Assembly: GCA_963775425.1 (NCBI GenBank)
Contig: CAVZJB010000016.1
Span: 1,120,001 to 1,184,000, forward strand
Source of the DNA: an uncultured delta proteobacterium
GTDB taxonomy: Bacteria; Myxococcota; UBA727; VGSZ01
Direction of reading: 5' to 3'
Length of the DNA stretch: 64,000 nt
A program made the position numbers and the translations under genes. This document shows, in pieces, positions 1 to 62,385 of this stretch (the first letter of the stretch is position 1; each line of letters begins with the position of its first letter). Under the pieces are notes generated by a model, which ran no database searches, had not been told where the DNA came from, and was given only the letters and a program-made list of their open reading frames with translations.

Positions 1-985
1 GGCGAGCATGCCCCGCGCCGACGGCGGCCTCTGCTTTTCGTTCGGGTCGACCAGGTCGTGTACGGCGTCGGCGACCGAGGCCGCGTCGACGAGCGGCGCG
101 CGGCCGGCGCCGTGCTTGCGCGCGAAAGCGACGACGCCGGCGTCGGCGCTGTCGAGGAAGAGGCCAGGCGCCCGATCTTGCGCCGTGGGCTCGCTCGCGG
201 CGCGGGGCGCTGCGGCAGCTCCTGCCGCCGTCGACGGCGAGGCGCCGTCGAGCATGACGACGGCGGCGACGCCCCCGCCCGCGCCCGCCCGGTGTTGGCC
301 GGGGCCGTCGAGGTCCATGCTTGTGAGCACGTCATCGACGCCGATGAGCCGGACGCCCGCGCGCCGGCCGCCGGCGACGGTGGGGGCGAGGGGCACGTCG
401 ACGGGCGCGACGTCGAGCCGGGGAACGCTGTCCCCTTCGAAGAACGCGCCTGGACCTGTCCGCGCGCCCTCGACGTTGGCGCGGGCGACGACGCCGCCGT
501 GCGCGTCGAGCGCGACGACCTCGGCGCCGCGGCGCTCCACGCGGCCGGCGACGACCTCTCCGCTCGAAAGAATCGACGAGCGCGGCGTCGGTGGGCCGCC
601 GCGGCTGGGCGTAGCGCAACAGATCGATGAGCAGCGCGCGCGGCCCGGCGGCGACGCGCGCGTCGCCGGACTCGACGACGGCGCCGTGGAGCGACACGTC
701 GCGCTCCTGGCCGCGACGGTAGCGAGCCGACAGCGCGAAGCCCTCGTCGTCGAGGACGGCGGACAGGCGCGTGCGCACGCCGGAGGTGAAGCGCTCGCGG
801 CGCTCCACGCGCGCGCCGTCGACGTCGTCGTCGACGAAGGCGACCCGCTCGCCGCGAAAGAACAACGTGGCGGTGTGCGTGGTGGCCGCGCGGTGACAAC
901 CCGCGAGCCCTGCCGTGAGACCGGCCGCGAGGCCGAGCCCGAGCAGCGCGCGCGCGACGCCGGCGCGCCCGCCCGCGGGGATCAC
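1..985 (-). CDS. Putative lipoprotein, possibly transglutaminase-like (runs off the left edge; +1 frameshift at 570-574)
   Basis: GTG at 985 overlaps the sfsA stop. Lipobox-like LAGC. Removing one base at GAATC 570-574 joins ...DAALVD to LSSGEVVAGRVERR...FLDSADAGVVAFARKHG...VADAVHDLVD...PPSARGMLA, which resembles the region preceding a transglutaminase catalytic Cys. The catalytic site lies outside the window. Confidence 0.5.
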
Positions 986-1692
986 GACAGCTCCACGGGC
1001 AGCCGGCCGGCAAACGAGAGCCCCCGCGCGTCGACGGCGCACGAGACGCACAGCACCTCGACGCCCGCGCGCGCCGCGCTCCTGAGCGCGCGCGCGTACG
1101 CCGGGTCGATGTGCCGGGCGGGGCCGAACGCCGAGACGCCGGAGCGCTTGTTCACGTAGAGCATCGCGGCGCGCCGGCCCGCGCGGGCGAGCCGCGCGAG
1201 CGCGTCGAGGTGCTTCTTGCCGCGCGTGGTCACGGCGTCGGGGAAGAGCGCCCGCCGCCCCTCCGCGAGCGTGACGCTCTTCACCTCGACGAAGCAGGCG
1301 CCCGGCTCGAGGCAGAGATCGAAGCGCGAGTGGGAGCGCGGCGACGGCGACACCTCCCGCCGCACCTCGTCGTAGCCGCGCAGCTCCTCGACGAGGCCCT
1401 GGGCGACGGCGCTCGCGGCGAACGCGTTGGCGGCGCCCGTGTTGACGCTCACCCAGTGGCCGCCGGCGCGGACCGCCTCGAGCTCGTACAGGAGCTTGCG
1501 CTTGGTGCCGTCGTGGCGCGTGAGCAGCACGGGCGCGCCCTCGTCGACGAGGCCGGTCATCGCGCCCGTGTTGGCGGTGTGGGCGACCACGGTGGCGCCG
1601 CCGTCGAGGGCGACGTCGACGAAGAACCGCTTGTACCGCCGGATGAGGCGGCCGGTGACGACGGGGCGCTCGAAGGGGACGAGGAGGGTCAT
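982..1692 (-). CDS. sfsA: DNA/RNA nuclease SfsA
   Basis: RYKRFFVDV, AHTANTGAMTGL, SRFDL, VEVKSVTL, FPDAVTTRGKKHL and IDPAYA motifs. Confidence 0.95.
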   Translation of the reverse strand: MTLLVPFERPVVTGRLIRRYKRFFVDVALDGGATVVAHTANTGAMTGLVDEGAPVLLTRHDGTKRKLLYELEAVRAGGHWVSVNTGAANAFAASAVAQGLVEELRGYDEVRREVSPSPRSHSRFDLCLEPGACFVEVKSVTLAEGRRALFPDAVTTRGKKHLDALARLARAGRRAAMLYVNKRSGVSAFGPARHIDPAYARALRSAARAGVEVLCVSCAVDARGLSFAGRLPVELS

Positions 1693-1718
1693 CGGCGTTC
1701 GGTGCTAGCCTCTACGCT

Positions 1719-2741
1719 ATGGCGACTCTCGCTCTGGACGTCCAGGGAGGCGATCTCGCGCCGGAGGCGCCCCTGTCCGCGGCGGCGCACTTCTCGACGC
1801 GCGCCGGCTGCCCCAGGCTGCTGCTCGTCGGTGACGCCGACCACATCCGCGGCGCGTTGGCGTCGCTGGAGCACGATCCGAGGCTCCTGGAGATCGTCCC
1901 CGCGTCGCAGGCGGTGGCCATGGACGCCGACCCGCGCGAGGCGCTCGACGCGATGCCGGACGCGAGCGTCCTGGTCGCCGCGCGCCTGGTGCGTGACGGC
2001 GAGGCCGACGCGCTCGTCTCCGCCGGCAACACCGGCGCCGTCGTGCTCGCGTGCGCGCGCACATGGAAGCGGCTGCCGGGTGTCAGCCGGTGCGCGCTCG
2101 GCGCCGTCTATCCCACCGAGTCGCGCCGCGGAGAGAAGCAGGACCCGTTCAGCCTCATCCTCGACGCCGGCCTCACGCTCGACGTCACGGCCGAGGACCT
2201 CGTGGGCTTCGCCGTCATGGGCTCCGCGTACGCGCAGCGCATCTCGAAGAACCACGAGCCGCGCGTGGCGCTGTTGAGCAACGGCACCGAGGCGGGCAAG
2301 GGCCTCGACTGCATCGTCGACGCCCACGCGCGCCTGAAGACGCTGCCGGGCATTCGCTTCATCGGCAACGTCGAGGGCATCGACATCGCCAAGGGCACGG
2401 CCGACGTCGTCGTCACCGGCGGCTTCACGGGCAACATCGTCATCAAGATGCTCGAAGGGGTCGCGGAGACGATGCAGTCGCTCCTGCGCTCCGCGTTCGA
2501 TCAGAGTCTGGTGAACAAGGCCGGGCTCGCGCTCCTCGCCCCGGCGTTGCGCGAGCTCAAGAAGACCACCGACTGGGAGCAGTACGGCGGCGCGCCCATC
2601 CTCGGCTTCGATCGCTTGTGCATCAAGGCGCATGGGCGGTCCTCGCCGCGCGCGATCAAGAACGCCCTCAAAGTGGCGGACCGCGCCGTCTCGACCGGGC
2701 TCGTCGACGCGATCGCGGCCGGCATCCGCTATTCTTCCTGA
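1719..2741 (+). CDS. plsX: Phosphate acyltransferase PlsX
   Basis: ALDVQGGDLAP, VSAGNTGA, FIGNVEG, GFTGNIVIKMLEG, YGGAPILG and KAHGRS motifs. Confidence 0.95.
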   Translation: MATLALDVQGGDLAPEAPLSAAAHFSTRAGCPRLLLVGDADHIRGALASLEHDPRLLEIVPASQAVAMDADPREALDAMPDASVLVAARLVRDGEADALVSAGNTGAVVLACARTWKRLPGVSRCALGAVYPTESRRGEKQDPFSLILDAGLTLDVTAEDLVGFAVMGSAYAQRISKNHEPRVALLSNGTEAGKGLDCIVDAHARLKTLPGIRFIGNVEGIDIAKGTADVVVTGGFTGNIVIKMLEGVAETMQSLLRSAFDQSLVNKAGLALLAPALRELKKTTDWEQYGGAPILGFDRLCIKAHGRSSPRAIKNALKVADRAVSTGLVDAIAAGIRYSS

Positions 2742-2742
2742 C

Positions 2743-5176: not shown

Positions 5177-5212
5177 GGTCGAGTACACTAGCGCGACGTG
5201 CGTGTCGGAGCG

Positions 5213-6275
5213 GTGGCCCTCGCAAGGAATCTCGTCGGGATTGCAGTGGCGCTCGTCGTCTGCGCCGGAGCCCGCGCCTCCGCCGAGGAGCGGATCGCGC
5301 TCTTGCCGCTCGTCGCCGAAGGGCTCGCCGCCGACGAGATCGGCGGCGTGGACGCCGTGGTGCAGCGCGCCGTCGAGGCGCACTTTGCGCGCCGCGCCAT
5401 CCCCCACGCCACCGTCGTGAAGCGGCTCGAGCGGGGGGGCGCGCGCGGCGTGCGCTGCGATCGTTCGGAATCCCACGTGCACCGCCCAGCTCGGTGCGCT
5501 GTGCGAGGCCGACGTCGTGCTCGTCGCCACCTTTAGCGCGCAGGGCGCCGGAGGCTCCCTCGCCATGCGGCTCGTCGACGTCGCCCACGCGAGCGAGCTC
5601 GCATCGGCACGCGCGCCGGTGGGCGATCGCTTCACCGTACGCGACGTCGACGCGGTGCTCACCGCGCTCGACGCGCCCGCCGCGCGCGCGACGCAACTGG
5701 AGGTGCGCGGGCCGGCGGGCGCGGCGCTCGTCGTCGACGGTGAGCCGAGCGGGACCCTCCCTGCGACGCTCACCGAGCTCTCGCCCGGAAAGCACGGCGT
5801 CACCGTAGGCAGCTTCGAGGCGTCGGTGGAGGTGCACCCGGGCGAGCGTCCCGTCGTCGACGTCCCCGCCACCGCGGTGCCCTCGACGAGCGCGGACCCG
5901 CCTGCGCTCAAGGAGGCCGCGCGAGCGCCGGGCCGGCCGGCGCCCGCGGCGGCGGACACCACGCCCCTCGGGTTCTACGCCGTCGGCGGAGGCGCCGGTG
6001 CCGGCGCGCTCGGCGCCGTCGCCGTGATGGTCGGCCTCGTCCCGCTCCTCACCGCGCAGAGCGCGGCGGCGAACCTGGCGCAGCTCGAGGGCGCCGCGCG
6101 CAGCGACGCCTCGAGCGCCGACGCCAACCGCGCGGCCATCGCCTCCGCGCACCGCGTCGCCGAGGAGAACCTCGCCGCGTGGCACGCCTGGGGCCTGCCG
6201 CTCACCGCGGTGGGCGTCCTCACCGCGAGCGCGGGCTTTGTCGCCGCGGGCGTCGGCCTCGTCGTCTGGGAGTGA
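5213..6275 (+). CDS. PEGA-domain membrane protein (+1 frameshift at 5468-5472)
   Basis: GGAG RBS with GTG 5213; signal peptide ending ARASA-EERIALLPL. Removing one A at GAATC gives CDRSDPTCTAQLGALCEADVVLV, joining ORFs 5198..5536 and 5517..6275. PEGA motif GPAGAALVVDG...LSPGKHGVTV; two C-terminal TM segments. Confidence 0.8.
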
Positions 6276-18817: not shown

Positions 18818-21800
18818 GGGCTCGCTCGCAGGTCGAAGAAATATCGGGCCACGCCCTTCACGGGCACTTGCACCGTATACGTCATCGCGGCGCCGAGCGC
18901 TTTCAGTGTGATGTCGTGGGCGCCGGCGGGGCAGGAGCGCTCGGCGTCGCCCGTCTTGCCCCAGGGCTGCCCGTCCATGAAGAGCTCCGCCGGCGGGCTC
19001 GACGCAAACACGGCGCGGCCGTCGGCCGCGGTCGACGTGAGGGAGAGGAGCGCGTGATAGACGTCGCCGCGGTCGATGGGGACCTCGGTGGTGACGGGCG
19101 CGTAGCCGTCGAGCCGCGCCTCGAGCACGTGCGTCTTGTCGGTGGAGACGCGATCGAGGGTGATGGGGCTGCGGCCGATCTCCGCGCCGTCGACGAACAC
19201 GCGCGCGCCCGCGGGCCGCGTCTCGATGACGACCTTGCCCGCCGCCGTGAGGTTCTCGCTCACGACGACGAAGCGTTGGCCCTTCTTGAGCGAGAGCTTT
19301 CGCTTGGTCGACGGGCCGTCTGCGACGTCGATCTTCACCTCGTGCGCGCCGTCGGCGAGGCGCACGTCGTCGACGAGCGGCGTGGTGCCGATACGATTCC
19401 CGTCGAGGAAGACCGCGGCGCCGGCAGGGTTGGAGCGCACGAGCAACGTGCGCGCGTCGCCGGGCGCGCCGCCGAGGGCCGCGCGCGCCGTCGACGCGGA
19501 GAAGAACCCGCCCGCGAGCGCGACGACGAAGACCGCTGCCGCGGCGACGCGCGCGCCCGTCCCGGGGAGCAGACCCCGGCGCGGGGCGCGGGGCGCGGGC
19601 GCCGCAGCCGGTCTCCCCGAGGGGCTCGGCGACGCCTGCATCGACGGCGGCGCGGTCACCGGGATCGGCTGCGGCCCCGCGGGCGGCAGCGCCGGCGACG
19701 CGGCGGCCGGCGCGGGTGGAGCAGGCGCGGCCAGGCTCGGCGGAGGCGGCGGCACGAGCGCGGCGGGCGGCGGCGGCGGCGCGGCCAACGCGGGCGGCGG
19801 CGGCGGCGCCGGCGCGAGGGCGGCGGGCGGGGGCGGCGGCGGCGCGAGCGCGGCGGGCGGGGGCGGCGCCGGCGCGGGCGGAGCCGCCGGATACGGCGCC
19901 GCGGGATACGGCGCCGCGGGATACGGCGCCTGCGACGCCGCGGGCGGATACGCGGGCTGTGCCGCCGGCGGGTACGGCGCCTGCGGGGCCGGCGGCTGCG
20001 ACGGGTACGCCGCCGCCGGCTGCGACGGGTACGCCGCCGCCGGCTGCGACGGGTACGGCGGCGGGACCGGCGCGGGCGGTTGCGGGACCGCCGGCTGTTG
20101 CGGCGACGGGTACGCGGTCGACGGCGGCGGGACCGGCGCCGGCGGCTGCGCATACGGCGCCGGCTGCGCGACCGGCGCGGGCGGTTGCGGCACCGGCGCC
20201 GGCGGGTGCGGGGCCGGCGCTTGCGGGACCGCCGGCGCGACGCTCGACGCGGGTGGAGGGGCCAACGCGGCCGGCGGCGGCGGCGCCGGGGCCACGCCGG
20301 ACGGGGGCGGCGGCGCGATCGCGGAGGCGCCGAGCGCGGGCGGCGGCGGCGCCGACGCCGACGCGCCGGGCTGCGTAAACGCCTCCGGCGGCGGTGGCCG
20401 GCGCACGCGCTGCGACGAGCGCTGCGACGACGGCGTCGACGTGCGCGGCAGCGCCGCGGACGAACCGCTCGCGTCGAGGGGCAACGCGCGCACCGACGGT
20501 GACGCAGCGACGACGCCGACCTTGTCGGACCTCGAGCGCGCGTCGGGCTCCGCGCGCCGCTCGCTCGGCCGCGACATCGGGCTCGCCTCCACGCGCGTCG
20601 GGTTCGGCCCGAAAGCTTCGGAGGGCGCTCGCCTGGATGCGTCGGGCAACGCGGCCACGCGCTTTTGCTCCGCCTGCGCGCCGACGCCGACGGCGTCCGG
20701 CCCCGCGTCGAGCGCGCGCGCGCCGCCGCCGGCCTTCACGGCGCGGACGTCCATCTGCGGCGCGCGCGCCGGCTCCGCGTCCGGCAACGGCCGCGCCCGC
20801 TGCCCTGCGCTGCGCGGCGGGGACGCGAGAATCCGCGCGCTGCGCCGGCTTCGGCCCCGACGGCTCGCGCACGCGCGACGACGGCGGCCGCGCCCGGCGC
20901 GCCGACGACGCCTCCTTCGCGGGCGGCGACGGCGGCGGCGACGCGAGCTCGCGCATCTCGTCCGGCTTGAAGATCTGGCTCTTCAGCTCGACTTGCCTGG
21001 TCTGGCGCGGCTCCGCGTCGCGCGTCTTCAGCTCTTCCTTGAAGACGTCGCGCATGAGCGCCGCGACCTCGGCGGGCTTCGGGTGCAGCGCGTGCCGATC
21101 GGCGATCTGCAACAGCTCGCGCTCGAACGCGAGCGCGTCCTGTGGCCGCGCGGCCGGGTCCTTTTCGAGGCTCCTCCGGATGAGCGCCTCGAGGTCGGCG
21201 GGCACGCCGAGCGTCGCGGGCAGCCGCGGCACCTGCGCCGCGCGCATGCGATCGAGCGTGGACAGGTCGGAGCTGCCGGCGAACAGCCGCTCCGCCGTGA
21301 TGGCCTCGAACAGCACGATGCCGACGTTGAACAGGTCGCTCCTGTGATCGAGCTGGCGCCCGCGGGCCTGCTCCGGCGACATGTAGCCGAACTTGCCCTT
21401 GATGACCCCGGCCATGGTCTTGTTCGCCGACGCCTGCACCTTGGCGATGCCGAAGTCGGTGAGCTTCACCTTGCCGTCGAAGGTGACGATGATGTTGTGC
21501 GGCGAGATGTCTCTGTGGATGAGCCGCAGCGCCCGGCCCTCGGCGTCGGTGGCCTTGTGCGCGTAGTCGAGCGCGCGCAACGTATCGACGGCGACCATCA
21601 TCGCCATCGACACCGGCAGGATCCGCTTCTTCTGGCTCGCGTAATAGATGACGTCGGCGAGGTCCTTGCCGTCCGCGAACTCCATCACGATGAAGTATTC
21701 GCCCTTGTCCGACATCACGAGGTCGAAGACCTGCACGATGTTCGGGTGGTTCAGGCACGCGGCCACGCGCGCCTCCTCCACGAACATCCGCACGAGCTCC

Positions 21801-21943
21801 TGATCGCGCGTGAAGTGCGGGAGGATCTTCTTCACCGCGTAGATCTTCTCGCTGCCGTCGGCGCCGACGACACGAGCGCGATAGACCTCCGCCATCCCGC
21901 CCTGGGCGTGGAGGTTCAAGACCTCGAGCTCCGAGAGCTTCAT
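18814..21943 (-). CDS. Ser/Thr kinase with long Pro/Ala-rich linker, TM helix and PEGA repeats (+1 frameshift at 20829-20833)
   Basis: AQGGMAEVY, AVKK, HRDISPHN, DFG and YMSPEQ motifs. Removing one base at GAATC gives ...QRADLASPPRSAGQRARPLPDAEP..., which joins ORF 18814..20787 (PEGA motifs SNPAGAAVFLDG, TRPAGARVFVDG). Confidence 0.88.
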
Positions 21944-22061
21944 CGAGGACGACACTACCATGCGCGTCGGGCTGGGCGCGTCGGCACATCCGCCGAGCGG
22001 CACCCCTCGGGCGCTTGCCGCCCGTGCTACGGTCGGCGGCACCGAGGAGCGGAGCGAGGGT

Positions 22062-24278
22062 ATGGCGAAACGGCGGCGGCGCGTCCCGCCACGGAGACCG
22101 GGACAGCCTGCGCTCGCGCCGGCACCGCCTTCGGGCTCGGCCAAGCGGGTCGTGCTCGTGCTCGCCGTCCTGTTCGCCGTCGGCCTGGCCGTGGGCGCAG
22201 GCGTGTCGTTCCTCGTCGACGTGCCCCCGCTCTTCGCCGCCGACCGCGCCCGCTTCGACCTCGCCCGCGACACCGGCGGCGCGCTCGCCGACGCGGCCTC
22301 CCTCGCCGACGGCGGCGATCCCGCGCTCTTCGCCCCCGCGGCGCTCGCCGGCGCTCTCCTCGTGAGCGATCACGTGGGCGGCGCCGACGAGGAGAAGCGG
22401 GCGGACGCGCGTTTGAGGACCACCCTCACCTTCGTGCGTGAAGCGCCCGAGGCCCTCTACGCGCGCGCGCTCCTCGCGCGGCTCGGCGTCGCCGACGCGG
22501 CCGTCGACGACGACATCGGCAAGCGCGCCGACAAGCTCGCAGACAACGCCTGGTGCTTGCTCGCCAGGAGCACGCGCGCGTGGGACCGCGGCGACCGCGA
22601 CGAGGCCGTCCGGCTCGCGCGGCGCGCCGCGCTCGGACCGGGGGCGCCGGTGCGGGCGCAGGTGGAGCTCGCGCGCGAGTCCATCGCGCAAGGCGCTGTC
22701 GACGAGGCTGGAGCGCTCGCCGCGCACGTCGAGCGCGAGCACCCCGGGCACGTGCAAGCGCGCATCGCCGGCATCCTCGCCGCCGTGATCGACGACGCGC
22801 GCGAGGAGACGCCGCAGGAGCGCTCCCTCAAGCTGCGGCGGGTGAAGCACCGCGCGGCAGAGCGGGGTGCGGCGCCGCGGCCAGGCCAGGCCCACGACGA
22901 CGACAGCGCGGCGCTCGCCCTGTGGCACACCGCGCCCGAGCAGGCGGCCATCGACGCGCTCGACAGCGTCGACGCCCGCGACGCCCCCGTGCTCGCGCTC
23001 GTCCTCGAGGTCTTCGCCGCCGGCCGCGGCGACGACGCGCTCGCCTCCGAGATGAAGAGCCGCGTGATCCCGGGCGCCGCCTCGTCGGCGGTGCTGGCGG
23101 CGCGACAGGCGGAGCTGTCGATCGCCCTGGGGGACACCGCGGCCGCCGAAGAGCTCCTCACGCGGGCGCTCGAGGAGAACCCCGACAACACCGCGCTGCT
23201 CCTCGACCGCGCCCGCCTGAGGTCGCTCACCGCGCTCAGCGACGAGGAGATCCACCGCCGCGCGGGGGCGTTCAAGAAATCCATCGGCACCGACGCCGTC
23301 GCCCTGCCCTTCGCCCGCGCGGTCATCAATCCGTTCGGCCTCGGTGGCGTCCCCTTTCGCTTCGAGCCCGACCCGGGCGTCATCCCGGAGGCCGAGTTGG
23401 CGGCGGCGCTGTCGTCGAAGGACGTGCAGAAGAAGCTCGACGTCGCGGTCTTCGTCCACAAGGGCTCGACGGCGCTTGGCCGCGGCGACGTTCCGGGCGC
23501 CGCCGACGCCGTCGCTCGCGCGAGAGAGAAGGCCGCCGGCGACCCCGACGTGTTGCTCCTCGACGCGCGCGTGAAGCAGCGGCAGGGTGATCGCGACGGC
23601 GCGCGCCAGGCGGTCGACGCCGCCGTCGAACGCGGCAAGGACGACGCGCACGTATTGCTGGCGGCGGCGCGCATTCACTACGACAACGAGGACTTCATCC
23701 CCGCGCGCAAGGTGCTCGCGCGGCTGCGTGCCCTCGGCTTCAAGAGCCCGGCGGCGCTCGCGCTCGGCGCCATGCTCGAGGCGCGCAGCGGCGACGCCCG
23801 GGCGGCGCAGGCGCTCCTGGCCGAGGCCAAGGACATCGGCGCCGGCAACGTCGAGATCGTGAAGGCCGAGGTCCTCATCCTCCGCGACGGCGACAATCTC
23901 GGCGCAGTCCGCGCGGCGGCGGATCACCTCCTCGCCGTCGACGGCCTGCGCACGAGCGACCCCATCCTCCGCTCATGGGAGGCCGACTCCGCCGCCCGCG
24001 CCGGCGACACGCTGCGCGCGCAGGCGGTGCTCGAGGACGTCATCGCTTCACGCGAAAACCTCGCCGACGCACATCTGTTGCTCGGCTCCATCCAGGCCGG
24101 CACCGACGAGAGCGCGGCCCGCGCCAGCTTCGAGCGCGCGGAGAAGCTGGCGCCGGGGAGCGCCGTCGCCTCGGAGGCCTCACGCCGTCGCGCGACGCTC
24201 AAGGGCGGCGGCGAGGCGGAGCGGCAGCCACCGCCGAAGCAGCGGCCGCGCCGACTGCCGCGAAAGCGAGGACGCTGA
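22062..24278 (+). CDS. Membrane-anchored TPR-repeat protein
   Basis: Basic N-terminus, TM VVLVLAVLFAVGLAVG, TPR-like helices (AEELLTRALEENP, AHLLLG, FERAEKLAP). Confidence 0.75.
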   Translation: MAKRRRRVPPRRPGQPALAPAPPSGSAKRVVLVLAVLFAVGLAVGAGVSFLVDVPPLFAADRARFDLARDTGGALADAASLADGGDPALFAPAALAGALLVSDHVGGADEEKRADARLRTTLTFVREAPEALYARALLARLGVADAAVDDDIGKRADKLADNAWCLLARSTRAWDRGDRDEAVRLARRAALGPGAPVRAQVELARESIAQGAVDEAGALAAHVEREHPGHVQARIAGILAAVIDDAREETPQERSLKLRRVKHRAAERGAAPRPGQAHDDDSAALALWHTAPEQAAIDALDSVDARDAPVLALVLEVFAAGRGDDALASEMKSRVIPGAASSAVLAARQAELSIALGDTAAAEELLTRALEENPDNTALLLDRARLRSLTALSDEEIHRRAGAFKKSIGTDAVALPFARAVINPFGLGGVPFRFEPDPGVIPEAELAAALSSKDVQKKLDVAVFVHKGSTALGRGDVPGAADAVARAREKAAGDPDVLLLDARVKQRQGDRDGARQAVDAAVERGKDDAHVLLAAARIHYDNEDFIPARKVLARLRALGFKSPAALALGAMLEARSGDARAAQALLAEAKDIGAGNVEIVKAEVLILRDGDNLGAVRAAADHLLAVDGLRTSDPILRSWEADSAARAGDTLRAQAVLEDVIASRENLADAHLLLGSIQAGTDESAARASFERAEKLAPGSAVASEASRRRATLKGGGEAERQPPPKQRPRRLPRKRGR

Positions 24279-26687: not shown

Positions 26688-26706
26688 CGCCGCGCGCGCC
26701 GCGCGC

Positions 26707-28374
<1,668 letters not shown>

Positions 28375-28853: not shown

Positions 28854-29480
28854 GACGGCGATTGTAGCGCGTCGATGCGCAGCTTGCGGAAGTGCACGAC
28901 GGAGCCGGGGTAGTGCGCCTGCAAGCCGAACAGCGGCCCGTCGGCGGGGGCGTCGTCGACGGACGCCGAGGGGACGCCGTCGATGGCGGCGCCCACGTGG
29001 GAGCCGCGGGCGACGGCGTCGATGGTGAACCATGCGCCGAAGGGCGGGATGGGCGCCTTGCCGCGGGCGCGGCCGTACAGGGAGCCTGTGGGGTTCCTCG
29101 GGTCGCTGGGATCGATCTGCACCTCGACGCCGTCCGGAAAGAAGATGCCCGCCTTGGCCCGCAGGAAAACGCCGCTGTTGCCGCCGTCTTCGACGTTGGC
29201 CTCGACGTGAACGCGGTAGTCGGCGCCGGCGAGGGCGACGACGATGGCGCCGGGGCCGCCGACGAGGGTGACGCCGTCGTCCTCCCAGCGCGCCTCGCAG
29301 CCGCCGCCCTCCACGCGCCACCAGGTCTTCAGAATCGGCGAAGGTGAGCGGCGCGTCGCCGTGGAGCGGCACGCGATCGTCGGGGACGGCCACGCACCCC
29401 CCGCACACGGCGGCGGCCCAGACGGCGGCGCAGGCGGCGCTGGCGGCGGCGCTGACGGGGGTGGGCGACGACGAGCGCAT
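28850..29480 (-). CDS. DUF1080 (3-keto-disaccharide hydrolase-like) lipoprotein (+1 frameshift at 29332-29336)
   Basis: [25 protein letters not shown] and VHFRKLRI motifs. Removing one base gives LTFADLKTWWRV, attaching a signal peptide ending GGC. Confidence 0.8.
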
Positions 29481-47178: not shown

Positions 47179-48010
47179 TCAGTGGACGTAGCCCGCGAAC
47201 AAGAGCGCCGAGAAGGCGTTGGACATGCCGTGGTAGAGGACGGCGCCGGTGATGGACTTCCCCTTGCGCGTGAGCCCCGAGAACACGAACGCGGGGAAGA
47301 ACGGCCCGAAGCGCGCGGGGTTGTACTCCCCGACGAAGTGGCCGAGCGCGAACATGGCCGACGCGAGGAACACCGTGCGGCCGAGAGGGATGATCCACAC
47401 GTAGCGCGTGGTGGGCCAGAGCTTCTCGAGGCGGTGCTCGAGGAACCCGCGATAGAACATCTCCTCGGGCAGCGCGATCAAGAACGTATTCTTCAACAGC
47501 GTGGACACGATGTCGGGGGGGACGGTGAAATGGTAGCCGGGGGCGCCGAAGTGCATTTGCCAGTAGTGGTGGCCGACGGCGAAGGGCGGGAAGGTGACGG
47601 CGGCGATCAGGAGCGCGAGGCCGACGTCCTTGAACAACGCCCTCGGGCGAAAGCGCGCCCCGCGTCCGTACGTCGCCAACAGCTCCGCGAGCTTCCCCGG
47701 CCGCCGACCGCGCCCCGGCCGCCGGCGCCGCGCGAGCACCAGGTGCCGGCGCAGCGCGGCCACGGGACCGAGGAGGAGACCGTGGGCGTTGATGCCGTAC
47801 GCCTCCGGCGCCTCGCCGCGGCGCTGCGTGAGCCACAGCGGGACGTAGATTCTGAAAGCCGGCCACGGCGGTGAAGAAGGCCGGGCCGATGAAGCCGACG
47901 GCGGCGACGAGGTGCTTGCCCGCGCCGAGCAAGACCAGCAGCCCGAGGCCCGCGAGCAGCGCCTCCTTCGCGCCGGCCCGTGCGTCCAGGCGCGGCAGCG
48001 GTGCGCTCAC
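47179..48010 (-). CDS. CPBP/CAAX (Rce1-like) glutamic intramembrane protease, myxosortase-like (+1 frameshift at 47848-47852)
   Basis: PEEMFYRG, FALGH and YHGMSN motifs. Removing one base gives AGFQIYVPLWLTQ, attaching the N-terminal TM segments that start at GTG 48010. Confidence 0.82.
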
Positions 48011-53444: not shown

Positions 53445-56319
53445 CGGTGGTGTTCGCCAGGCTGCGCTCGGCGCCCATGGCCGCGCGGTGCGCGCCCGGC
53501 GCGGGGACGAGCGACGCGAGGCTCGGCGGCGCCTCCACCAGCTCCTGCAGCGCGGGGAGCACGATGCGATCCGTCGGCCACGGGTCCCGCGAGCTCGCGT
53601 CCATGGCCTTGTCGAGGAGGCCCGCGAGCTCCGCGTCGCGCCCGTCCGAGAGCGCCGCGCGCACGCGCACCCAGGCGGCGTCGGCGACGAAGCCGGCGGC
53701 GGTGGCGTGATCGGCGAGGTCGTTGAACGCCGTGCGATCGTCCTCGTGGATCTCGGAGCGCGCGGCGGCGAACGCGAGGGTCTCGACGTCGTCGAGCGGC
53801 TCCTGCATCGCCGAGAACGCCGCCACGCTCTCGCGGGCGCGGCCCGCAGACCAGAGCATGAGCGGCGTGGGCAGCGCGGCCGTGAGCGGGTCGGGCGGCA
53901 CCTGGTTGCGCCACACGAAGGGCCGCCCGCGCTGCGCGTCGACCTTGCGCCAGTCGATGGCGCCGCGCACCGTGGGCCGATCGCGCAGGTTGGCGTCGGC
54001 GAGCGCCTGCAGGTCCGCGCGCGCGTCGGACCGTCGCGTCGCTCGCGCGAAGAGGAACTCGAGGCGCGGGAGGTCGTCGGTGTTGAGGTCGTCGCCGTCA
54101 CCGCGCGCGAGGCGCGTGAGCGTGACGTCCGACGCGATGTGCAGCGCGAGCACGCCCTCGGCGCCGGTGACGCCGAAGAGCCGACGGAAGGCGGTGCGGT
54201 ACGGCTCGGTCTGCACGAGGGCGTCGAGGGCGGCCGTGTCCCAGACCTGCGGCGCCTTGGTGGCGACGATGAGCATGTCGCCCGCGCCGAGCTGCCACGC
54301 CGACAGGCTCGGGAAGACGCTCTTGAGCGTGGCGAGCACGAGGCGCATGGCCGCCGGGTCGATCTCGTCGCTTTGGAGGCGCTGGCCGAACACGCCGCCG
54401 TCGTGGAGCTTGTCGTAGACCGACGCGTAGAACTCACGCGAGGTGAAGCTCGCGACCCCTGCGTTCTCGTTGCCTGACGGCTCGGAGAGCACCAGGTCGT
54501 AGCGCTCGTGCGTGACCGCGAGCAGCTCGCGGCCGTCGGCGATGTGCACCCGCACCTTGGGATTTTCGAGCGCGCGCTGGTTGGTCGGGTCGCACCGTTG
54601 CGCGAAGCGCCGCATCGCGGGCTCCACCTCGGCGACGTCGACGCGCTCCATGCTCGGCAGCGCGCCGAGCCACCCGGCGGTCTGCCCGCTGCCGAGCCCG
54701 ATGACGAACGCGGTGCGCGGCGCTCCGAAGAGCGCCGCGGGGATGAGGCCGACGCCGACGCCCGCGGGCGCGTCGACGACCGCCTCGTCCTCGTCCGCGC
54801 CGTCGACGGCGACCGTCGCGCCGCGGCCGCGCGCGGCCGGGCCGTGCGCCATCAGGCACACGAGGGTGCAGGCGGTGAGCACGGAGACGAGCGCGAGGCG
54901 TGGGCGCTCCGACGTCGCGCGGCCGGGATCCTGCGAGCGGAGGGAGCGGCCGCGCTGGAACACCGCGACGACGGCGACGACGCCGGCGAGCGCGACGAGG
55001 GCCGCGGCGCTCGCGCGCCACAGGCCCACGGCGTCCACCACGGGGAGGAGCGCGAAGCCGCCGGAGAGCGAGCCCGCGATGGAGCCCAACGTGTTGGCGG
55101 CGTAGACCTCGCCGCTGTCCTTGCCCACCTCGCGCGCCGCCCGGCCCTTCAGCGACAAGAGCATCGGGAATTGGTAGCCGGCGACGACGGCCGCCGGCAT
55201 GACGAGCAACGCCGTGACCATCGTCCAGCTCAGGATGAGGAGCGGGAAGCTCCCGCGGCCCCACGTGGTCGCGAGCACGGCGAAGCGCGACAGCTCGTCG
55301 CCGGCGGCGTAGGGCACCAGCAGCACGAGGGCCTCGAGCGCGCAGGTGACCGCGAAACGCGAAGGCGTCGGCTCGCGCGGACCGGCGAACGCGTAGAGCA
55401 CGCCGCCGATACCGACGCCGAACAGGGCGCAGGCGAGCACGAGGCCGAACGTGTACGTGGAGCCGCCGAGGAGCGGAGCGGCGACGCGGTACCACACGAG
55501 CTCGGCGAGCAGGAACACGAAGCCCGTGAGGAACGCGGCCGCCAGCACCCACCGCGACGAGAACGCAAACCTGCGCTTCTCCTCGGGCGGCGCCGGCGCG
55601 GGCGCGATGACGGGATCGAGCGCCTTGCCACACGCGCGCGCGAGCAGACCGATCACGGCGTTGACGAGGCACGCGAGCCACAGGGTCTTGCGCGCGCCGT
55701 AGATCTCGAGGAGCGCGAACGTCGACAACAGCGCGCCGGCGACGGCGCCGAGCGTGTTGGTGCCGTACAGGAGCGAGAGGCCCTTGCGCCCGACGTCGGA
55801 CTCCGCGGTGACCGCGCGCGCAGCGGCCGGCAGCGTGCCGCCCATGAGGACGACGGGGACGCCGAGCACGAGCACCGACAGCAGCAGCCGCACGACGGTG
55901 GACGCGGCGCCGAGGCCCTCACTCCCGCCGGCGACGACGTAGGCCGCGCGCGCGGCGTCGAGGAGGAACGGCGTCACGGCCGCACCCGCGGCGACGCCGA
56001 GCTCGAGGTTGCCGTAGGTGACGAGAGGGCGCGCGGACCGCTCGACGCGACGGCCGAGCAGGAGCCCGCCGACGCCGAGGCCGCCCATGAAGATGGCGAG
56101 CACCGCCGCCGTCGACGGCGTCGACGCGCCGAAGATCAAACGAAACGCGCGCAGCCACACCGTCTGGTAGACGAGGCCGCACATGCCGCTCGCGAACAGA
56201 CACGCGGCGGCGATGGTGAGCGAACGCGAAGAGTTGCTCGGCGGTCGGCCGAAGCCTGAGGCGGGGGGCGACCAAGGACGCGACAAGCTCGCTTTGAATA
56301 TCCCATCCGGCGTCGACAA
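53359..56319 (-). CDS. Fused MFS-like membrane / spermidine-synthase-like (SAM-binding) protein
   Basis: ASGMCGLVYQTVW, LYGTNTLG, VIGLGSGQT, AEVEP, DGRE and YDLVLSEPS motifs; start uncertain; 3' end overlaps pilI by about 85 nt. Confidence 0.85.
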   Translation of the reverse strand: MSTPDGIFKASLSRPWSPPASGFGRPPSNSSRSLTIAAACLFASGMCGLVYQTVWLRAFRLIFGASTPSTAAVLAIFMGGLGVGGLLLGRRVERSARPLVTYGNLELGVAAGAAVTPFLLDAARAAYVVAGGSEGLGAASTVVRLLLSVLVLGVPVVLMGGTLPAAARAVTAESDVGRKGLSLLYGTNTLGAVAGALLSTFALLEIYGARKTLWLACLVNAVIGLLARACGKALDPVIAPAPAPPEEKRRFAFSSRWVLAAAFLTGFVFLLAELVWYRVAAPLLGGSTYTFGLVLACALFGVGIGGVLYAFAGPREPTPSRFAVTCALEALVLLVPYAAGDELSRFAVLATTWGRGSFPLLILSWTMVTALLVMPAAVVAGYQFPMLLSLKGRAAREVGKDSGEVYAANTLGSIAGSLSGGFALLPVVDAVGLWRASAAALVALAGVVAVVAVFQRGRSLRSQDPGRATSERPRLALVSVLTACTLVCLMAHGPAARGRGATVAVDGADEDEAVVDAPAGVGVGLIPAALFGAPRTAFVIGLGSGQTAGWLGALPSMERVDVAEVEPAMRRFAQRCDPTNQRALENPKVRVHIADGRELLAVTHERYDLVLSEPSGNENAGVASFTSREFYASVYDKLHDGGVFGQRLQSDEIDPAAMRLVLATLKSVFPSLSAWQLGAGDMLIVATKAPQVWDTAALDALVQTEPYRTAFRRLFGVTGAEGVLALHIASDVTLTRLARGDGDDLNTDDLPRLEFLFARATRRSDARADLQALADANLRDRPTVRGAIDWRKVDAQRGRPFVWRNQVPPDPLTAALPTPLMLWSAGRARESVAAFSAMQEPLDDVETLAFAAARSEIHEDDRTAFNDLADHATAAGFVADAAWVRVRAALSDGRDAELAGLLDKAMDASSRDPWPTDRIVLPALQELVEAPPSLASLVPAPGAHRAAMGAERSLANTTVREGRGGRTGRPPQRGTRRHRGTRRARS

Positions 56320-56352
56320 TCACGAAACCAACGCCGGCGGACACCGGGCGAG

Positions 56353-59300
56353 TCACCCGCCGATGGGGACGCAGGCACAGGTGCCCGGGTTGCAGGTGGT
56401 GGCGCCGGTGCACCCGTCGTTGCAGTTGGGGCCGCCGCAGTCGCAGCGGCAGTCGTCGAGGTTGGGGACGTGCGTGGCCGGACACGCCAGCGCGCCCGCA
56501 TCACACACGCAACCACACACCGACGGATCGTTGTCGAAGACGAAGCCGGGCGCGCAGGTGGCGCTCTCGACGCACTGGCAGGCGCAGACGGCGGGGTCGC
56601 TGTTGCACGTCGAGAACCCGCCGCACTGCCCGTTGCAGTCGGCGGCGCAGGTGGGCTCGCAGGTGGTGGTGTTGCAGGTCTGGGTGGGCGACAGGCTGCC
56701 CCCGCAGTCGGCCGGGCACTGGTAGGTGCAGTCCGAGCCGCAGACGAAGCTCGGGCCCGGCGGCGCGCCGGTGCACCCCCCGGGGGCGCAGGTCGGCGTG
56801 CACGTGGCCGGGTCGCAGACCTGGTTTCCGGCCAGCGGCGCGCCGGTGTTGCAGTCCGCGGGGCACGTGCAACTGCAGTCGGCGCTGTTGGTGTCGCAGA
56901 CGGCGCCGTTGGCGCAGCCGCCGCAGTCGGGGAGGCACTCCACCTGGCACTGCGCGTTGCAGGTCTGGCCCGGGGCGAGGCCGCCGGCGACGCCGCAGTC
57001 CGCCGGGCACTGGCACTGGTTGTTGGCGCCGCACACGAACGGCGGCTGGCAGTTGCAGGTGTTGTTGTTGCCGTCGGGGTCGGGGCTGTCCTCGATCCAG
57101 AAGCGGTACGAGACCGAGAAGGGCTGACCGACCTGGCTGTTGTCGAGCTTGGGACGGCAGGTGCCGAAGAACGTGATGCTGTTGGTGGCGCCGTCGTAGT
57201 CGAAGCCGTTGACGCGCGAGCGCGGGACGTCGTCGGTGTTGCAGGCCCCCTGCGTGGAGCCCGCCGGCAACGCCACCTTGATGGTGGCCGAGATGGGCGG
57301 CTTCTCGAGGACGTACGGCGACGACTGCGCGATGGACGCCTGGAGGATCTGCGCGATGGCGGCCTGGATCTTGGCCTGGTTGTCCGGGTCGTTGTTGTCC
57401 GGCAGCGCCGCCTCGATGCCGCCCATGGCGGACAGGAAGGTCTGCCAGCGGGTGTTCATGTAGTTGCCGTTTTCGTCGGTGCAGCCGGTGCCGGCCGGGC
57501 AGACGAGCCCACCGACGATGGCGCGGGACAACAGCGGGTCTCCCGCGCCGTCGAAGTTCTGGAAGTAGTTGACCCACGTGGGCACGGAGTGCGTGGCCAC
57601 CGCCTCGGTCTGGTTGCCCGCGACGTAGCGGCCGTCGCTCTGCTCGTTGGCGTCGGTGATGAAGATGACGACGAGCTGCGCGCCGGTGCGAAGCTTGTGC
57701 GCGTCGTTGGCGGCGCGCGGCAGGAGCGTGAACGGCGCAGGCGCCGCCGCGTACGTGACGTTCGCCGGGTACGGCGCGCGGTTGCCGTCGCGGCCGCATT
57801 GCTCGCCGTCGGCGGCGCCGCCGAGCTCACCGGTGCCGGTGAGGTTCTGATCGATGCCCGGACCGGAGACCGTGCGACCCGACAGACAGGCGAGCTGGCG
57901 GAAGAAGTTCTCCTCGCCGCTGCCGCCGGTGTTGAGCTGGTTGACGCACGTGGAGACGGTGGCGGCGTTGGTGGTGAACGGGCAGTACGTCTTCTGTCCG
58001 CCGCCGATGGAGCAACTGCCGGCGGCGCCGAGCTCGCAGGCCGCCCACGCGGCGGCGTTGTTGGTGAGCGAGTCTTGATCGCTCGACACCACGCCGATGC
58101 GGAAGTCCACGGAGGAGTTGGACAACTGCGAGCCGATCTGGGTGCCGGAGTTGGCGACCGCGGTCTGCTCGTTGTCCATGGAGCCGGAGTTGTCGATGAC
58201 GAGGAGGAAGTCGACCTTCTGCACGGGCTGCACCGTGAAGCGGTCGCACTGCACGCCGGTGTCGTCGCCGAACTGCGCGACCGCCGTGCCGTTGGCCATG
58301 TCGTCGACCTTGAAGCCCGCGCGCTCGACGGAGCCCACGCGCGACGTGGCGGCGAGCGAGACGACGACGATGGTGCTCGTGGCGGAGCGATCGAGGACCT
58401 CGACCTCCATGGTGTAGGGCCCGTGATCGGTGGAGCCGTTGGCGTCGAGGGTGCCGGTGGCGCCCGCCGAGAGCGCGTTGACGATGCGGTTGAGCGACGC
58501 CGCGGTGACGCCGTTTTGGCCGTCTGTCCAGGTGATGCGGCCGAGCGCGGCGTTGTTGCCTCCCGGCGAGTCCCACGACGGGAACGACTGGCTGGCGAAG
58601 GAGCCCACCGCGCCCACCGTGTTGAGGCGCGCTTCGATGGTGGCCATCTGCGCGGTGGCGTTGGCGCCCGCGACGTTGATCTTCATGGCCACGCCGGCGA
58701 CCTGATCGGTGGGATCGAACACCATGGCGCCGATCTGGTTGCCGCCCGCGTCCTTGAGCTCGGTGATGCGGTTCTGCGGGAAGTCGAGCGGGACCGCGAG
58801 GATGAGGTCGGCGGTCTGATCGGGGCGCGTGACGAGCGTGACGTCGCGGAGGTTCTCGATGCCGCACGCGGCGACGTCGGTGACGCCGACGTCGCCGGGG
58901 TCGTTGGGGTCGAGCTCGCCGGCGTCGACGGCGCCGTTCTGGTTGGCGTCCTCCGCGCCGTCGGGGAGGGTGTCGCCGTCGGTGTCGGCGTTGGTGGGGT
59001 CCGTGGTGGTGGACGGATCGGCGTCGACGACGCACGGCAGCGGCGCCCCTTGCGCGACGCACGCCGCGGCGGTCTGCGGATCGGTCCCGCCGACGCGACA
59101 GGTGGTGCCGGCCTCGACGCCGTCGAGGATGCCGTCGCCGTCGGTGTCGCGCTCGAGCGGGTTGGTGCCGTTGGCGACCTCCGCGCCGTCGGGGATGCCG
59201 TCGCAGTCGGTGTCGACGCTCAGGGGATCGGTCCCGTGCTGCACCTCGTCGCCGTCGTCGAGGCCATCGCCGTCGGTGTCGGCCTTGTTGGGGTCGGTGC

Positions 59301-60711
59301 CGAGCTGCGCCTCGACGTCGTCGCTGAGGCCGTCGCCGTCGGTGTCGACGTCGGGGATGCGCGGGTCGGTCTCGCCCGCGTCGACGATGCCGTTCCTGTT
59401 CAGGTCCTCGCCCGCGGTGCAGATGCCCGCGACGCTGGCGGGGCCGTCACAGATGCCGTCGAGGTCGGTGTCGGCGGCGCCGGGGTCCGTCTCCTGCACG
59501 CCGCCGCGGTTCGGCGGCGCGAGCGCGCCGTCCTGGTTCCTGTCCTCGGTGCCGTCGTTGATGCCGTCGCCGTCGGTGTCCGCGCGCAGCGGGTTGGTGG
59601 TGGTGCTCGGGTCCGCGTCGACGGGGACGCCGGTGCACGCGCTCCCGGGCACAGGGCCCGTCTTTCCGAGCTCGACGCCGTCGGTGAGCAAGTCGCCGTC
59701 GCTGTCACGCACGCGCGGGTTGGTGTGCGAGACGGTGATCTCCTCGAGGTCGGAGACGCCGTCGCAGTCGGTGTCGGGCTTGTTGGGATCGGTCTCGCCG
59801 GGATCGAGGACGCCGTTGATGTTGAGGTCCTCGCCGGCGACGCACACGCCCTGCACGGTGCCCGGACCGTCGCACAGGCCGTCGCCGTCGCTGTCGGGGT
59901 TGTTCGGGTCGGTGACGCCGTGGGCGGTCTCGAGGTCGTCGGGGATGCCGTCGCAATCGCTGTCGGGGTTGGGCGTGAACGGATCGGGGTCGACGCCGTC
60001 GGGGATGCCGTCGCCGTCGCTGTCCGGGTTGAGCGGATCGAGCTCGCCCGGGTCGACGACGCCGTTGTGGTTGACGTCCTCGGCGCCGTCGGAGAGGCCG
60101 TCGCCGTCGGTGTCCGCGGTGGCGGGGTCGGTCTCGCCGTTGTCGACGACGCCGTCGCAGCTCGCGTCCTCGGTGCCGTCGGGGATGCCGTCATGGTCGG
60201 AGTCGGTGGCGGCGGGATCGGTCTCACCGGGGTCGACGCGCCCGTTGACGTTTTTGTCCTCGACGCCGTCGGGGATGCAGTCGCCGTCGGTGTCGGCGGA
60301 GACGGGGCTCGTCGTGGTGCTCGGATCGGCGTCCGCCCACGTCGCCGGGCACTCGGCGTCGATGGCCGCAGTGCGCCCGGCTTCGACACCGTCGGCGATG
60401 CCGTCGCCGTCGCTGTCGTAGTTGCCCGGGTCGGTCCTTTGGCCGCCGGCGTAGACGGTGGTGAACTCCTCGAGGTCGGAGAGGCCGTCGCAATCGGAGT
60501 CGCGGGTGGCGTTGTCGGGGCTGTTGGGATCGGGGTCGCGGATGGGTTCGGTGGGCGGCGTCACATCGCCCTCACCTTCTCCCTCGCCCTCGCCTTCCCC
60601 TTCGCCGGTGTCGCCCTCGCCCTCGCCTTCACCCGGACCGTGGTTCGAACAATCGCAACTTGCGAACGGGATCACACCGAGCAACGCGGTGAGCAGAAAG
60701 AGGCGGGTCAT
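56353..60711 (-). CDS. cglD: CglD-like gliding-motility lipoprotein: GE linker, TSP3-type Ca-binding repeats, vWA domain, Cys-rich tail
   Basis: Lipobox FASC; many DxDxDGxxDxxE repeats; MIDAS VIDNSGSM and ITDANEQS; C-terminal CxC repeats. Confidence 0.75.
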   Translation of the reverse strand: MTRLFLLTALLGVIPFASCDCSNHGPGEGEGEGDTGEGEGEGEGEGEGDVTPPTEPIRDPDPNSPDNATRDSDCDGLSDLEEFTTVYAGGQRTDPGNYDSDGDGIADGVEAGRTAAIDAECPATWADADPSTTTSPVSADTDGDCIPDGVEDKNVNGRVDPGETDPAATDSDHDGIPDGTEDASCDGVVDNGETDPATADTDGDGLSDGAEDVNHNGVVDPGELDPLNPDSDGDGIPDGVDPDPFTPNPDSDCDGIPDDLETAHGVTDPNNPDSDGDGLCDGPGTVQGVCVAGEDLNINGVLDPGETDPNKPDTDCDGVSDLEEITVSHTNPRVRDSDGDLLTDGVELGKTGPVPGSACTGVPVDADPSTTTNPLRADTDGDGINDGTEDRNQDGALAPPNRGGVQETDPGAADTDLDGICDGPASVAGICTAGEDLNRNGIVDAGETDPRIPDVDTDGDGLSDDVEAQLGTDPNKADTDGDGLDDGDEVQHGTDPLSVDTDCDGIPDGAEVANGTNPLERDTDGDGILDGVEAGTTCRVGGTDPQTAAACVAQGAPLPCVVDADPSTTTDPTNADTDGDTLPDGAEDANQNGAVDAGELDPNDPGDVGVTDVAACGIENLRDVTLVTRPDQTADLILAVPLDFPQNRITELKDAGGNQIGAMVFDPTDQVAGVAMKINVAGANATAQMATIEARLNTVGAVGSFASQSFPSWDSPGGNNAALGRITWTDGQNGVTAASLNRIVNALSAGATGTLDANGSTDHGPYTMEVEVLDRSATSTIVVVSLAATSRVGSVERAGFKVDDMANGTAVAQFGDDTGVQCDRFTVQPVQKVDFLLVIDNSGSMDNEQTAVANSGTQIGSQLSNSSVDFRIGVVSSDQDSLTNNAAAWAACELGAAGSCSIGGGQKTYCPFTTNAATVSTCVNQLNTGGSGEENFFRQLACLSGRTVSGPGIDQNLTGTGELGGAADGEQCGRDGNRAPYPANVTYAAAPAPFTLLPRAANDAHKLRTGAQLVVIFITDANEQSDGRYVAGNQTEAVATHSVPTWVNYFQNFDGAGDPLLSRAIVGGLVCPAGTGCTDENGNYMNTRWQTFLSAMGGIEAALPDNNDPDNQAKIQAAIAQILQASIAQSSPYVLEKPPISATIKVALPAGSTQGACNTDDVPRSRVNGFDYDGATNSITFFGTCRPKLDNSQVGQPFSVSYRFWIEDSPDPDGNNNTCNCQPPFVCGANNQCQCPADCGVAGGLAPGQTCNAQCQVECLPDCGGCANGAVCDTNSADCSCTCPADCNTGAPLAGNQVCDPATCTPTCAPGGCTGAPPGPSFVCGSDCTYQCPADCGGSLSPTQTCNTTTCEPTCAADCNGQCGGFSTCNSDPAVCACQCVESATCAPGFVFDNDPSVCGCVCDAGALACPATHVPNLDDCRCDCGGPNCNDGCTGATTCNPGTCACVPIGG

Positions 60712-60785
60712 GTTTGGCTCCGCAACAAGGCCTTCAGTCTAGCCGCACGGCGAAACCCCGTCTCGCGAATCACGGGACGTGTCGG

Positions 60786-60808
60786 CGAGGGGGGGCAGCC
60801 CCCCCTCG
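60786..60808. promoter_or_regulatory. Perfect 10-bp inverted repeat in the divergent cglD/antiporter intergenic region
   Basis: CGAGGGGGGG-CAG-CCCCCCCTCG. Confidence 0.5.
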
Positions 60809-60845
60809 GGTACCGCGCAGCCGGGAATCGGGGTATTCGGCCACC

Positions 60846-62385
60846 ATGTCCGCCGAGCTCGCCATCGTCGGCCTCTTCGCCGTCGCGACCACCGTCGCGG
60901 TGCTGGCCCGACGTCTGCGCGTGCCCTACACCGTCGCACTCGTCCTCGCCGGCGTCGTCCTGGGCGGAAACGGCGTCCTCACGCCGCCGCACCTCACCAA
61001 GGAGCTGCTGTTCGCGGTGTTCCTGCCCGGGCTCATCTTCGAGGCCGCCTTCGCCATCGACGCCCGCGACCTCTTCCGCAACAAGCTCGCCGTCTCCTCC
61101 CTCGCCTTCCCCGGCGTCGTGGTCGCCACCGTCGCCACCGCCGCGGCCATCGTCGGCCTGGAGGGCGTCGGCAGCGGCTTTCCCTGGGGCCTCGCCTTCC
61201 TCTTCGCCGCCCTCGTGTCGGCCACCGACCCCATCGCCGTGATCTCCGTGTTCAAGGCGGTGGGCGCCCCGCACCGCCTGCGCCTGCTGGTGGAGGGAGA
61301 GAGCCTGCTCAACGACGGCACGGGCATCGTGCTGTTCGGCATCGTGCTCGAGGCCATCACCTCGGGGCACGTCTCCTTCGCCGGCGCCACCGTCGACTTC
61401 TTCCGCATCGTCGGCACCGGCGTCGCCGTCGGCCTCGGCGTCGGCCTCGCCATCTCCGAGGTCATCAAGCGCATCGACGACCCGATGCTCGAGACCACGC
61501 TCACCACGGTGGCGGCGTACGGATCGTTCCTCGTGGCGGAGCACTTCGAGGGCTCCGGCGTCATCGCCACCGTCGTCGCGGGCCTGTTTTGCGGCAACTA
61601 CGCGGCGCGCTCGGGGATGAGTGCGCCGACGCGCCTCGTCGTCGCGACCTTCTGGGAGTACACGGCGTTCGCCCTCAACTCCATCGTCTTCCTGCTCATC
61701 GGCTTCTCCGTGAGCTTCCACGCGCTGCTCGACGCGTGGCTGCCCATCGTGCTCGCGTTCGTCGCCATGACGTGCGGTCGGGCGCTCGTCGTCGTCGCCG
61801 TCACCATGGCGCTCAAGCGCACCCGCGAGGCCGTCCCGGCCAAGTGGGCCGCGGTGCTCACGTGGGGCGGCATGCGCGGCGGCCTCTCCATGGTGCTCGC
61901 GCTGGCGCTGCCGGACGAGGTCCCGCAGCGGGAGATGATCGTCGTCGTCACGTTCGGCGTGGTGCTGCTGTCCATCCTCCTTCAGGGCTCCACCATGGCG
62001 CTCCTGCTCAAGCGCCTGGGCCTCGCCCACGCGGCCACGGAGGAGGTCCGCGAGATTCGAGAAGCTGCGCGCGGCGTCGCGCGCGGCCCACGCCGCCATC
62101 GACGAGATCCACGCCGCGGTGTCGCGACGCGAGATCCTCCCCGCGTCCGGCGACGAAGCCAAGCGCCCGTACCTCGAGCGGCTGCACGACGCCGAGGAGA
62201 AGATCGAGGAGCTCGGCGCCGATCGCGTCCTCGAGGTCGAGCGCGCGGAGGCGGAGCGCATCGCCATCTTCGCCGAGCGCGCCGCCCTGCTCGACGCCGC
62301 CCGCGCCGGCACGCTCAGCGAGGAGGCGCTGCGGGAGCTGTCCGCCGACGTCGACGAACGGCTCATGCGCCTGCGCGAGAAATAG
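60846..62385 (+). CDS. CPA1 Na+/H+ antiporter (+1 frameshift at 62054-62058)
   Basis: FLPGLIFEAA, SATDPIAV, EGESLLNDG and WGGMRG motifs. Removing one T gives EEVREIEKLRAA..., joining ORF 62119..62385. Confidence 0.9.

Follow-up and report, generated by a model that had tools for sequence, protein, structure and literature searches.

One-base frame breaks at GAATC and GATTC, a probable consensus artefact of GATC sites in a G+C-rich bacterial genome assembly

Results

Six interrupted genes in the window

The window analysed here is a stretch of 64,000 nucleotides (G000:C16:1120001-1184000) from the genome of an uncultured delta proteobacterium, assembled as 8.26 Mb in 18 contigs with 72% G+C. 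It contains 288 intact GATC sites and 19 pentamers of the form GAWTC (11 GAATC and 8 GATTC), and this study concerns six of the latter, at each of which a reading frame breaks by +1. A preliminary description of the sequence had listed these six breaks and ascribed each to a single extra base inside GATC. All six pentamers are present where it placed them, and they interrupt the following genes.

570..574, minus strand, GAATC (AGAATCG): +1 break in a gene without a Pfam family that runs off the start of the window
5468..5472, plus strand, GAATC (GGAATCC): +1 break in a plus-strand gene at about 5192-6275, without a Pfam family
20829..20833, minus strand, GAATC (AGAATCC): +1 break in a Ser/Thr kinase, within its low-complexity linker
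29332..29336, minus strand, GAATC (CAGAATCG): +1 break close to the N-terminal end of a 3-keto-disaccharide hydrolase (DUF1080-type) protein
47848..47852, minus strand, GATTC (AGATTCT, underlying AGATCT): +1 break in an Rce1/CPBP-like membrane protease, about 50 codons from its start
62054..62058, plus strand, GATTC (AGATTCG): +1 break directly past the transmembrane domain of a Na+/H+ exchanger

Lists of open reading frames (ORFs) are uninformative at such a G+C content, and we therefore relied instead on the G+C content of third codon positions (GC3), a model of codon likelihood with 2091 long ORFs of the same genome as its training set, Pfam and the genomes of relatives. An exact-site +1 test was run for each pentamer position, taking the best of six coding hypotheses over the 80 codons to the left and then the +1 frame to the right. 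A site passed when both parts lay on the same strand, both margins were at least 25 nats, no stop occurred and both frames stayed open for 10 codons past the site. Same-strand frame switches were also located by a separate, unbiased scan for codon-likelihood peaks. The relatives are only about 70% identical to this genome in DNA, too little for the ancestral base at each site to be recovered. Junctions were therefore tested at the protein level: the two unaltered half-translations were joined by X and queried against the relatives' loci.

Five of the six breaks are confirmed by one uninterrupted predicted protein in relatives, and that at 29332 is upheld by codon statistics and a Pfam domain. 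The corrected reading at 570 is AALV-D-LSSGEVV (GAT CTT), and the three relatives' loci are all uninterrupted with D at the junction. The same residue stands at the junction of the nearest homologue of the gene broken at 5468 (RCDRL-D-PACSAQLG), for which five of five homologous loci, four in relatives and one a paralogue on contig C5, are uninterrupted. The kinase broken at 20829 has its Pkinase domain upstream of the break and two PEGA domains downstream; in three relatives' loci a single ORF extends through the poorly conserved linker, from Pkinase to the C-terminal part, and the exact base at this site is fixed by codon statistics only. The protease is read AGFQ-IYVPLW when fused at 47848 and is uninterrupted at seven of seven relatives' loci. 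The exchanger starts at an ATG at about 60845 and has the fused reading EVRE-I-EKLR; three of four loci align over 100 residues on each side with one junction residue (I in L003), and the fourth shows a gap of four residues. The fused reading at 29332 is LTFA-D-LKTWW. This site passed the codon test, and a match to 3keto-disac_hyd (profile 27-186) begins 17 residues past the break; no relative was found in the 12 genomes searched.

The break at 5468 was also considered as one in the adjoining minus-strand Ser/Thr kinase. This assignment was rejected: 117 residues separate the site from the start of the Pkinase domain downstream, and the frames of the plus strand give a better fit. The family of the gene that is broken at 5468 is small and has no Pfam match; it includes the paralogue at C5:65097-65933 and several copies in the relative G006. 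Downstream of the Na+/H+ exchanger, positions 62396-62670 of the window hold a repeat of about 270 nucleotides, of which more than 20 full or partial copies with 75-94% identity occur on at least six contigs.

Codon statistics agree with these assignments. GC3 shows a phase shift of +1 at 570, 20829 and 62054, and the codon-likelihood scan placed +1 switches near 570, 5468, 20829, 29332 and 62054. The exact-site test was passed at 5468, 20829, 29332 and 62054 and failed at 570 and 47848, the latter because only about 50 codons lie upstream. GAWTC makes up about 0.15% of the window, so the coincidence of six breaks out of six with this pentamer is not due to chance. None of the 13 remaining GAWTC in the window passed the test. 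The preliminary description was also right that GATC is mostly left intact and that GAWTC is in part genuine sequence. Two GAATC at 60767 and 60825, close to switch candidates near 60815, and one GATTC at 63673, close to a candidate near 63617, were rejected as further breaks since they are intergenic. The other switch candidates of the window meet a stop within about 60 nucleotides or inside the test window, as do normal gene boundaries.

Specificity of the breaks across the genome

Genome-wide, 76 of 2007 GAWTC sites passed the +1 test (3.8%; about 15 expected), as against 4474 of 603,202 other AA- or TT-centred pentamers (0.74%). Such a count of frame-breaking indels by motif had been named beforehand as a check on the proposal, and it singles out GAWTC. 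The closest variants stay low, with 0.5% for GACTC and 0.8% for GAGTC, which is background, and about 1% for GAATT, AATTC, CAATG and CATTG. Among pentamers free of stop triplets, the +1 class contains z-scores above 5 for GAWTC-derived words only (5.8-15.4), and the -1 class contains no z-score above 3.5, GGGGG/CCCCC reaching about 2.5 at most. The peak-based scan gave a concordant result: GAWTC lies within 30 nucleotides of 86 of the 553 +1 candidates, where 1.5% would be expected, and of 17 of the 508 shift-2 candidates. Frameshift candidates away from GAWTC looked mostly like gene starts, intergenic regions and low-complexity repeats across the genome, and no other motif emerged from them.

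The passing sites are spread over 17 of the 18 contigs. With four of the six window sites passing, the test would detect about two thirds of such events. We thus estimate that the 76 detected sites, about 60 of them above background, represent roughly 100 errors among some 37,900 GATC sites in the genome; the affected share of GATC is only about 0.2-0.3%.

Methylation of GANTC, as by enzymes of the CcrM type, was considered as the source of the motif and rejected, GACTC and GAGTC being at background though a CcrM-like methylase is encoded. The spurious GAWTC happens to fit GANTC; frame breaks are not in excess at GASTC.

The extra base and its sequence context

Removal of either copy of the doubled W yields the conserved residue wherever this can be judged, namely Ile in GatB and Asp at 570 and 5468. 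Matches of other junctions to motifs of CarA, GlmS, DnaJ and RelA/SpoT point the same way. The preliminary description held that deleting the doubled A or T restores GATC and fuses the two halves into one protein. The fusion and the conserved residue stand; the choice of base is looser, since deletion of the adjacent G or C is often equivalent, and we take GATC as the original sequence by parsimony.

Error rates were normalised to all intact GATC in both orientations, and the context was read on the strand with the doubled A. They are as follows.

All contexts: 76 detected errors, 75,624 intact orientations, 1.0 per 1000
A-GATC: 48 errors, 17,134 intact, 2.8 per 1000
CA-GATC: 37 errors, 4,130 intact, 9.0 per 1000
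A-GATC-T: 19 errors, 2,476 intact, 7.7 per 1000
GATCA-GATC: 10 errors, 83 intact, 120 per 1000
T-GATC: 1 error, 12,688 intact, 0.08 per 1000
A downstream of GATC: 0 errors, 13 expected, 0 per 1000

The rates for CA-GATC and T-GATC thus lie about 100-fold apart, and the highest rate is reached where two GATC sites are 5 nucleotides apart (GATCAGATC). The word GATCAGAATC occurs 18 times in the genome and passes the +1 test 10 times; this is near the ceiling of the test, and most of these sites are therefore probably errors. The break at 29332 and that of dnaJ (C6:130801) share an identical 17-mer context. The determinant is an asymmetric, heptamer-like YCA-GATC, strongest in GATCAGATC. The original naming of GATC as the error motif therefore needs extension: GAWTC-derived words are the sole strong outliers, and the determinant is wider than GATC alone and not symmetric.

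Genes interrupted elsewhere in the genome

Both halves of all 76 passing sites were scanned against Pfam. In five cases a single profile continues across the break with almost no loss of positions.

C3:719868: GATase (small chain of carbamoyl-phosphate synthase, carA-like), profile positions 83 and 85 across the break
C5:594099: GIDA (mnmG), 313 and 316
C6:130801: DnaJ_C (dnaJ), 82 and 87
C11:1058177: 5_nucleotid_C, 75 and 77
C18:113269: GatB_N (gatB), 87 and 89

A cyclophilin is divided at profile positions 63 and 86. The breaks in a Mur ligase, MetH, GlmS, RelA/SpoT and MutS2 fall between the usual domains and not inside one. For GatB, nine of nine relatives' loci read YFYPDLPKGYQ-I-SQ, with exactly one junction residue, Ile. 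The coding signal is strong and undecayed on either side of the breaks, and no secondary lesions accompany them. The genome also contains a duplication of about 7.5 kb (C11:~109500-117100 and C12:~56100-63650; 99.4% identical, with 45 mismatches and 3 gaps), both copies of which show the same break of frame, at a GAATC in a gene for a CarboxypepD_reg-domain protein.

Several frame breaks were also seen in a bacteriophage exclusion (BREX-1) island at C9:36000-52000 (locus L134), which encodes BrxC, PglX, PglZ and BrxL and has 61.7% G+C, compared with 72% for the genome. PglZ is broken at GGGAATCG (L134:9905) and BrxL probably at GGAATCT (L134:10847). The frame of PglX shifts near L134:6840, in addition to a break taken up in the Discussion.

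Candidate modification and repair enzymes

One D12-class adenine methylase is encoded at C5:46415-47422 on the minus strand (113 bits on PF02086). It has counterparts in 24 of 30 relatives at 48-68% identity, including small genomes of the same order. A full-length homologue of MutH lies at C17:271104-271385 on the minus strand (174.6 bits on NF003458, for which the equivalog cut-off is 243); it was found in 14 of the 30 relatives, and among 14 control genomes only that of Escherichia coli matched. The CcrM-like, beta-class adenine methylase mentioned above is at C9:221113-221766 on the minus strand, with 163 bits on PF01555 and 219 bits on NF050803 (cut-off 830). No match to the C5-methylase family PF00145 or to N6_Mtase (PF02384) was found in the genome.

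Discussion

Motif specificity, a constant +1 direction, spread through the genome, disruption of housekeeping genes and dependence on sequence context characterise the breaks described here. From the assembly sequence we infer that they are an artefact of sequencing or of the assembly consensus, with a probability of about 0.9, and that the genes are almost certainly intact in the organism: a real loss of all these housekeeping genes through one type of lesion is implausible, and their codon bias has not decayed. A small proportion of GATC sites would have acquired a single spurious A or T in the assembly, placed between GA and TC. The resulting GAATC or GATTC would shift the frame by +1, and the error would be favoured by A, and especially CA, immediately 5' of GATC on the strand with the doubled A. 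The genes themselves would be intact in the cell. True pseudogenes would be expected to combine heterogeneous lesions, relaxed coding and dispensable functions; here there is a single lesion type, and it affects housekeeping genes. The earlier advice that the six window genes should not be called pseudogenes is thereby reinforced, as the same event recurs on 17 of 18 contigs, cuts inside single Pfam domains and strikes a gatB that is uninterrupted in all nine relatives' loci. The underlying data are presumably from a long-read platform, because the 8.26 Mb are contained in 18 contigs and there is little sign of homopolymer indels. A search of public sequencing runs with positions 20001-30000 of the window listed none.

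Some observations weigh against this interpretation or limit it. The background rate predicts about 15 false positives among the 76 passing sites. Four or five sites resemble ordinary boundaries of adjacent genes (Hpt/HrcA, kinase/Pyr_redox, kinase-receiver/AdoMet synthase and hexapeptide/FabA) and are probably false positives. Homology cannot identify the extra base, because at several sites the protein is unchanged when the neighbouring G or C is removed instead. At least one other +1 break, that of pglX in the BREX island at AAGGAACC (about L134:5215-5225), is not at a GATC site.

The breaks share with the homopolymer indel errors of long-read assemblies the one-base indel, the false pseudogenes and the good coding signal on both sides. 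Unlike those errors, they do not arise at a homopolymer, and GGGGG/CCCCC show little excess in the -1 class. A second precedent is a report on nanopore-only bacterial assemblies, PMC11610603. In the part of that report available to us, a comparison of native and amplified DNA assigned the errors to base modification, GATC being among the motifs. They are motif-specific, persist in the consensus and recur genome-wide, like those described here. The errors given in that part of the report are strand-specific substitutions (C2T/G2A) and not insertions, whereas here an A or T is duplicated inside GATC with a strong and asymmetric flank requirement; this contrast speaks against a link with methylation and in favour of an error independent of modification. 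A full-text literature search, which did not extend to supplements, found no description of a +1 insertion that turns GATC into GAWTC.

What triggers the artefact is a separate matter. Methyl-directed mismatch repair by Dam and MutH, which acts through N6-methyladenine (m6A) at GATC, is known from Escherichia coli. As in that system, an N6-adenine methylase of the D12 class and a full-length MutH homologue are encoded here, and both are widespread in relatives, which suggests that a Dam/MutH-type system may exist in the lineage and would make GATC methylation likely there, the MutH homologue pointing to GATC; this bears only on the possible trigger of the artefact. Unlike in E. coli, the methylase scores below the Dam cut-off and MutH below its own, and the system is a prediction from gene content. 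We lean slightly towards a contribution of Dam-type m6A at GATC to the miscall. The highest error rate, at two closely spaced GATC sites, would fit an additive effect of two marks, and no other AT-containing k-mer shows a comparable excess.

A weakness of the base-caller or of the consensus step at YCAGATC, and especially at the 5-nucleotide periodic GATCAGATC, would account for the artefact with no role for DNA modification. We regard this as a real possibility, somewhat short of even odds, and the points in its favour are the same as those that count against methylation. The strong asymmetry of the flanks (CA upstream, 9 per 1000; T upstream, 0.08; A downstream, none) is not expected from a palindromic mark alone, and such a mark should act symmetrically at all or most GATC sites, where we find an asymmetric effect at a few per thousand of them. 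The encoded methylase is not a canonical Dam, with 20.6 bits on the Dam subfamily model TIGR00571 (cut-off 114.85) and no relative in the PDB at E<=0.01. The conserved methylase and MutH homologue, the additive pattern at paired sites and the uniqueness of the k-mer argue in the opposite direction.

The preliminary description had read the consistent +1 signature as a sign of a possibly unusual modification. Nothing in our results points to one. The flank asymmetry and the peak at GATCAGATC are left unexplained by a symmetric GATC mark alone, and for this reason a cause beyond ordinary Dam methylation was considered. It could be a second, non-palindromic or bulky modification over YCAGATC, for instance by a BREX PglX-type enzyme or another adenine methylase, or a real process of one-base insertion that targets GATC and is linked to the MutH-family nuclease; we consider such a cause improbable.

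It is very unlikely that the extra bases are real, produced by a site-specific mutational process at GATC (such as nicking or cutting followed by error-prone repair) that inactivates genes or varies their phase. A predicted GATC endonuclease of the MutH family is encoded, and the identical change in the two copies of the 7.5-kb duplication could have been inherited. Such a process would nevertheless require the simultaneous loss of gatB, the carA-like gene, mnmG, dnaJ, glmS, the Mur ligase, metH, relA/spoT and others, with the coding signal intact on both sides and secondary lesions absent. The inserted base always copies a neighbour, the relatives are in frame, and phase variation finds no simple-sequence repeat tract at the GAWTC sites. 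Real frameshifts that are decoded by programmed +1 ribosomal frameshifting or transcriptional slippage can be practically dismissed: all events are indeed +1 and share a short sequence context, but the sites have no slippery homopolymer, stop codon or obvious rare codon (the gatB break reads CAG AAT CTC), no examined relative shifts at the same place, and we know of no precedent for about 100 recoded genes in a free-living bacterium with an 8-Mb genome.

If the breaks are an artefact of the consensus, annotation of this genome would turn roughly 100 genes into pseudogenes or split ORFs, among them gatB, the carA-like gene, mnmG, dnaJ, glmS, metH, relA/spoT and the six genes of the window. Such false breaks would depress estimates of completeness and distort pathway and pangenome calls. 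The signature is simple and can be searched for, as a +1 frame switch at GAWTC and most of all at CAGAATC and GATCAGAATC, and could serve to flag or correct errors in this assembly and possibly in others of the same chemistry. Its bearing on the biology of the organism is indirect: it hints, without proof, at GATC methylation in the lineage and at a possible repair system of the Dam/MutH type.

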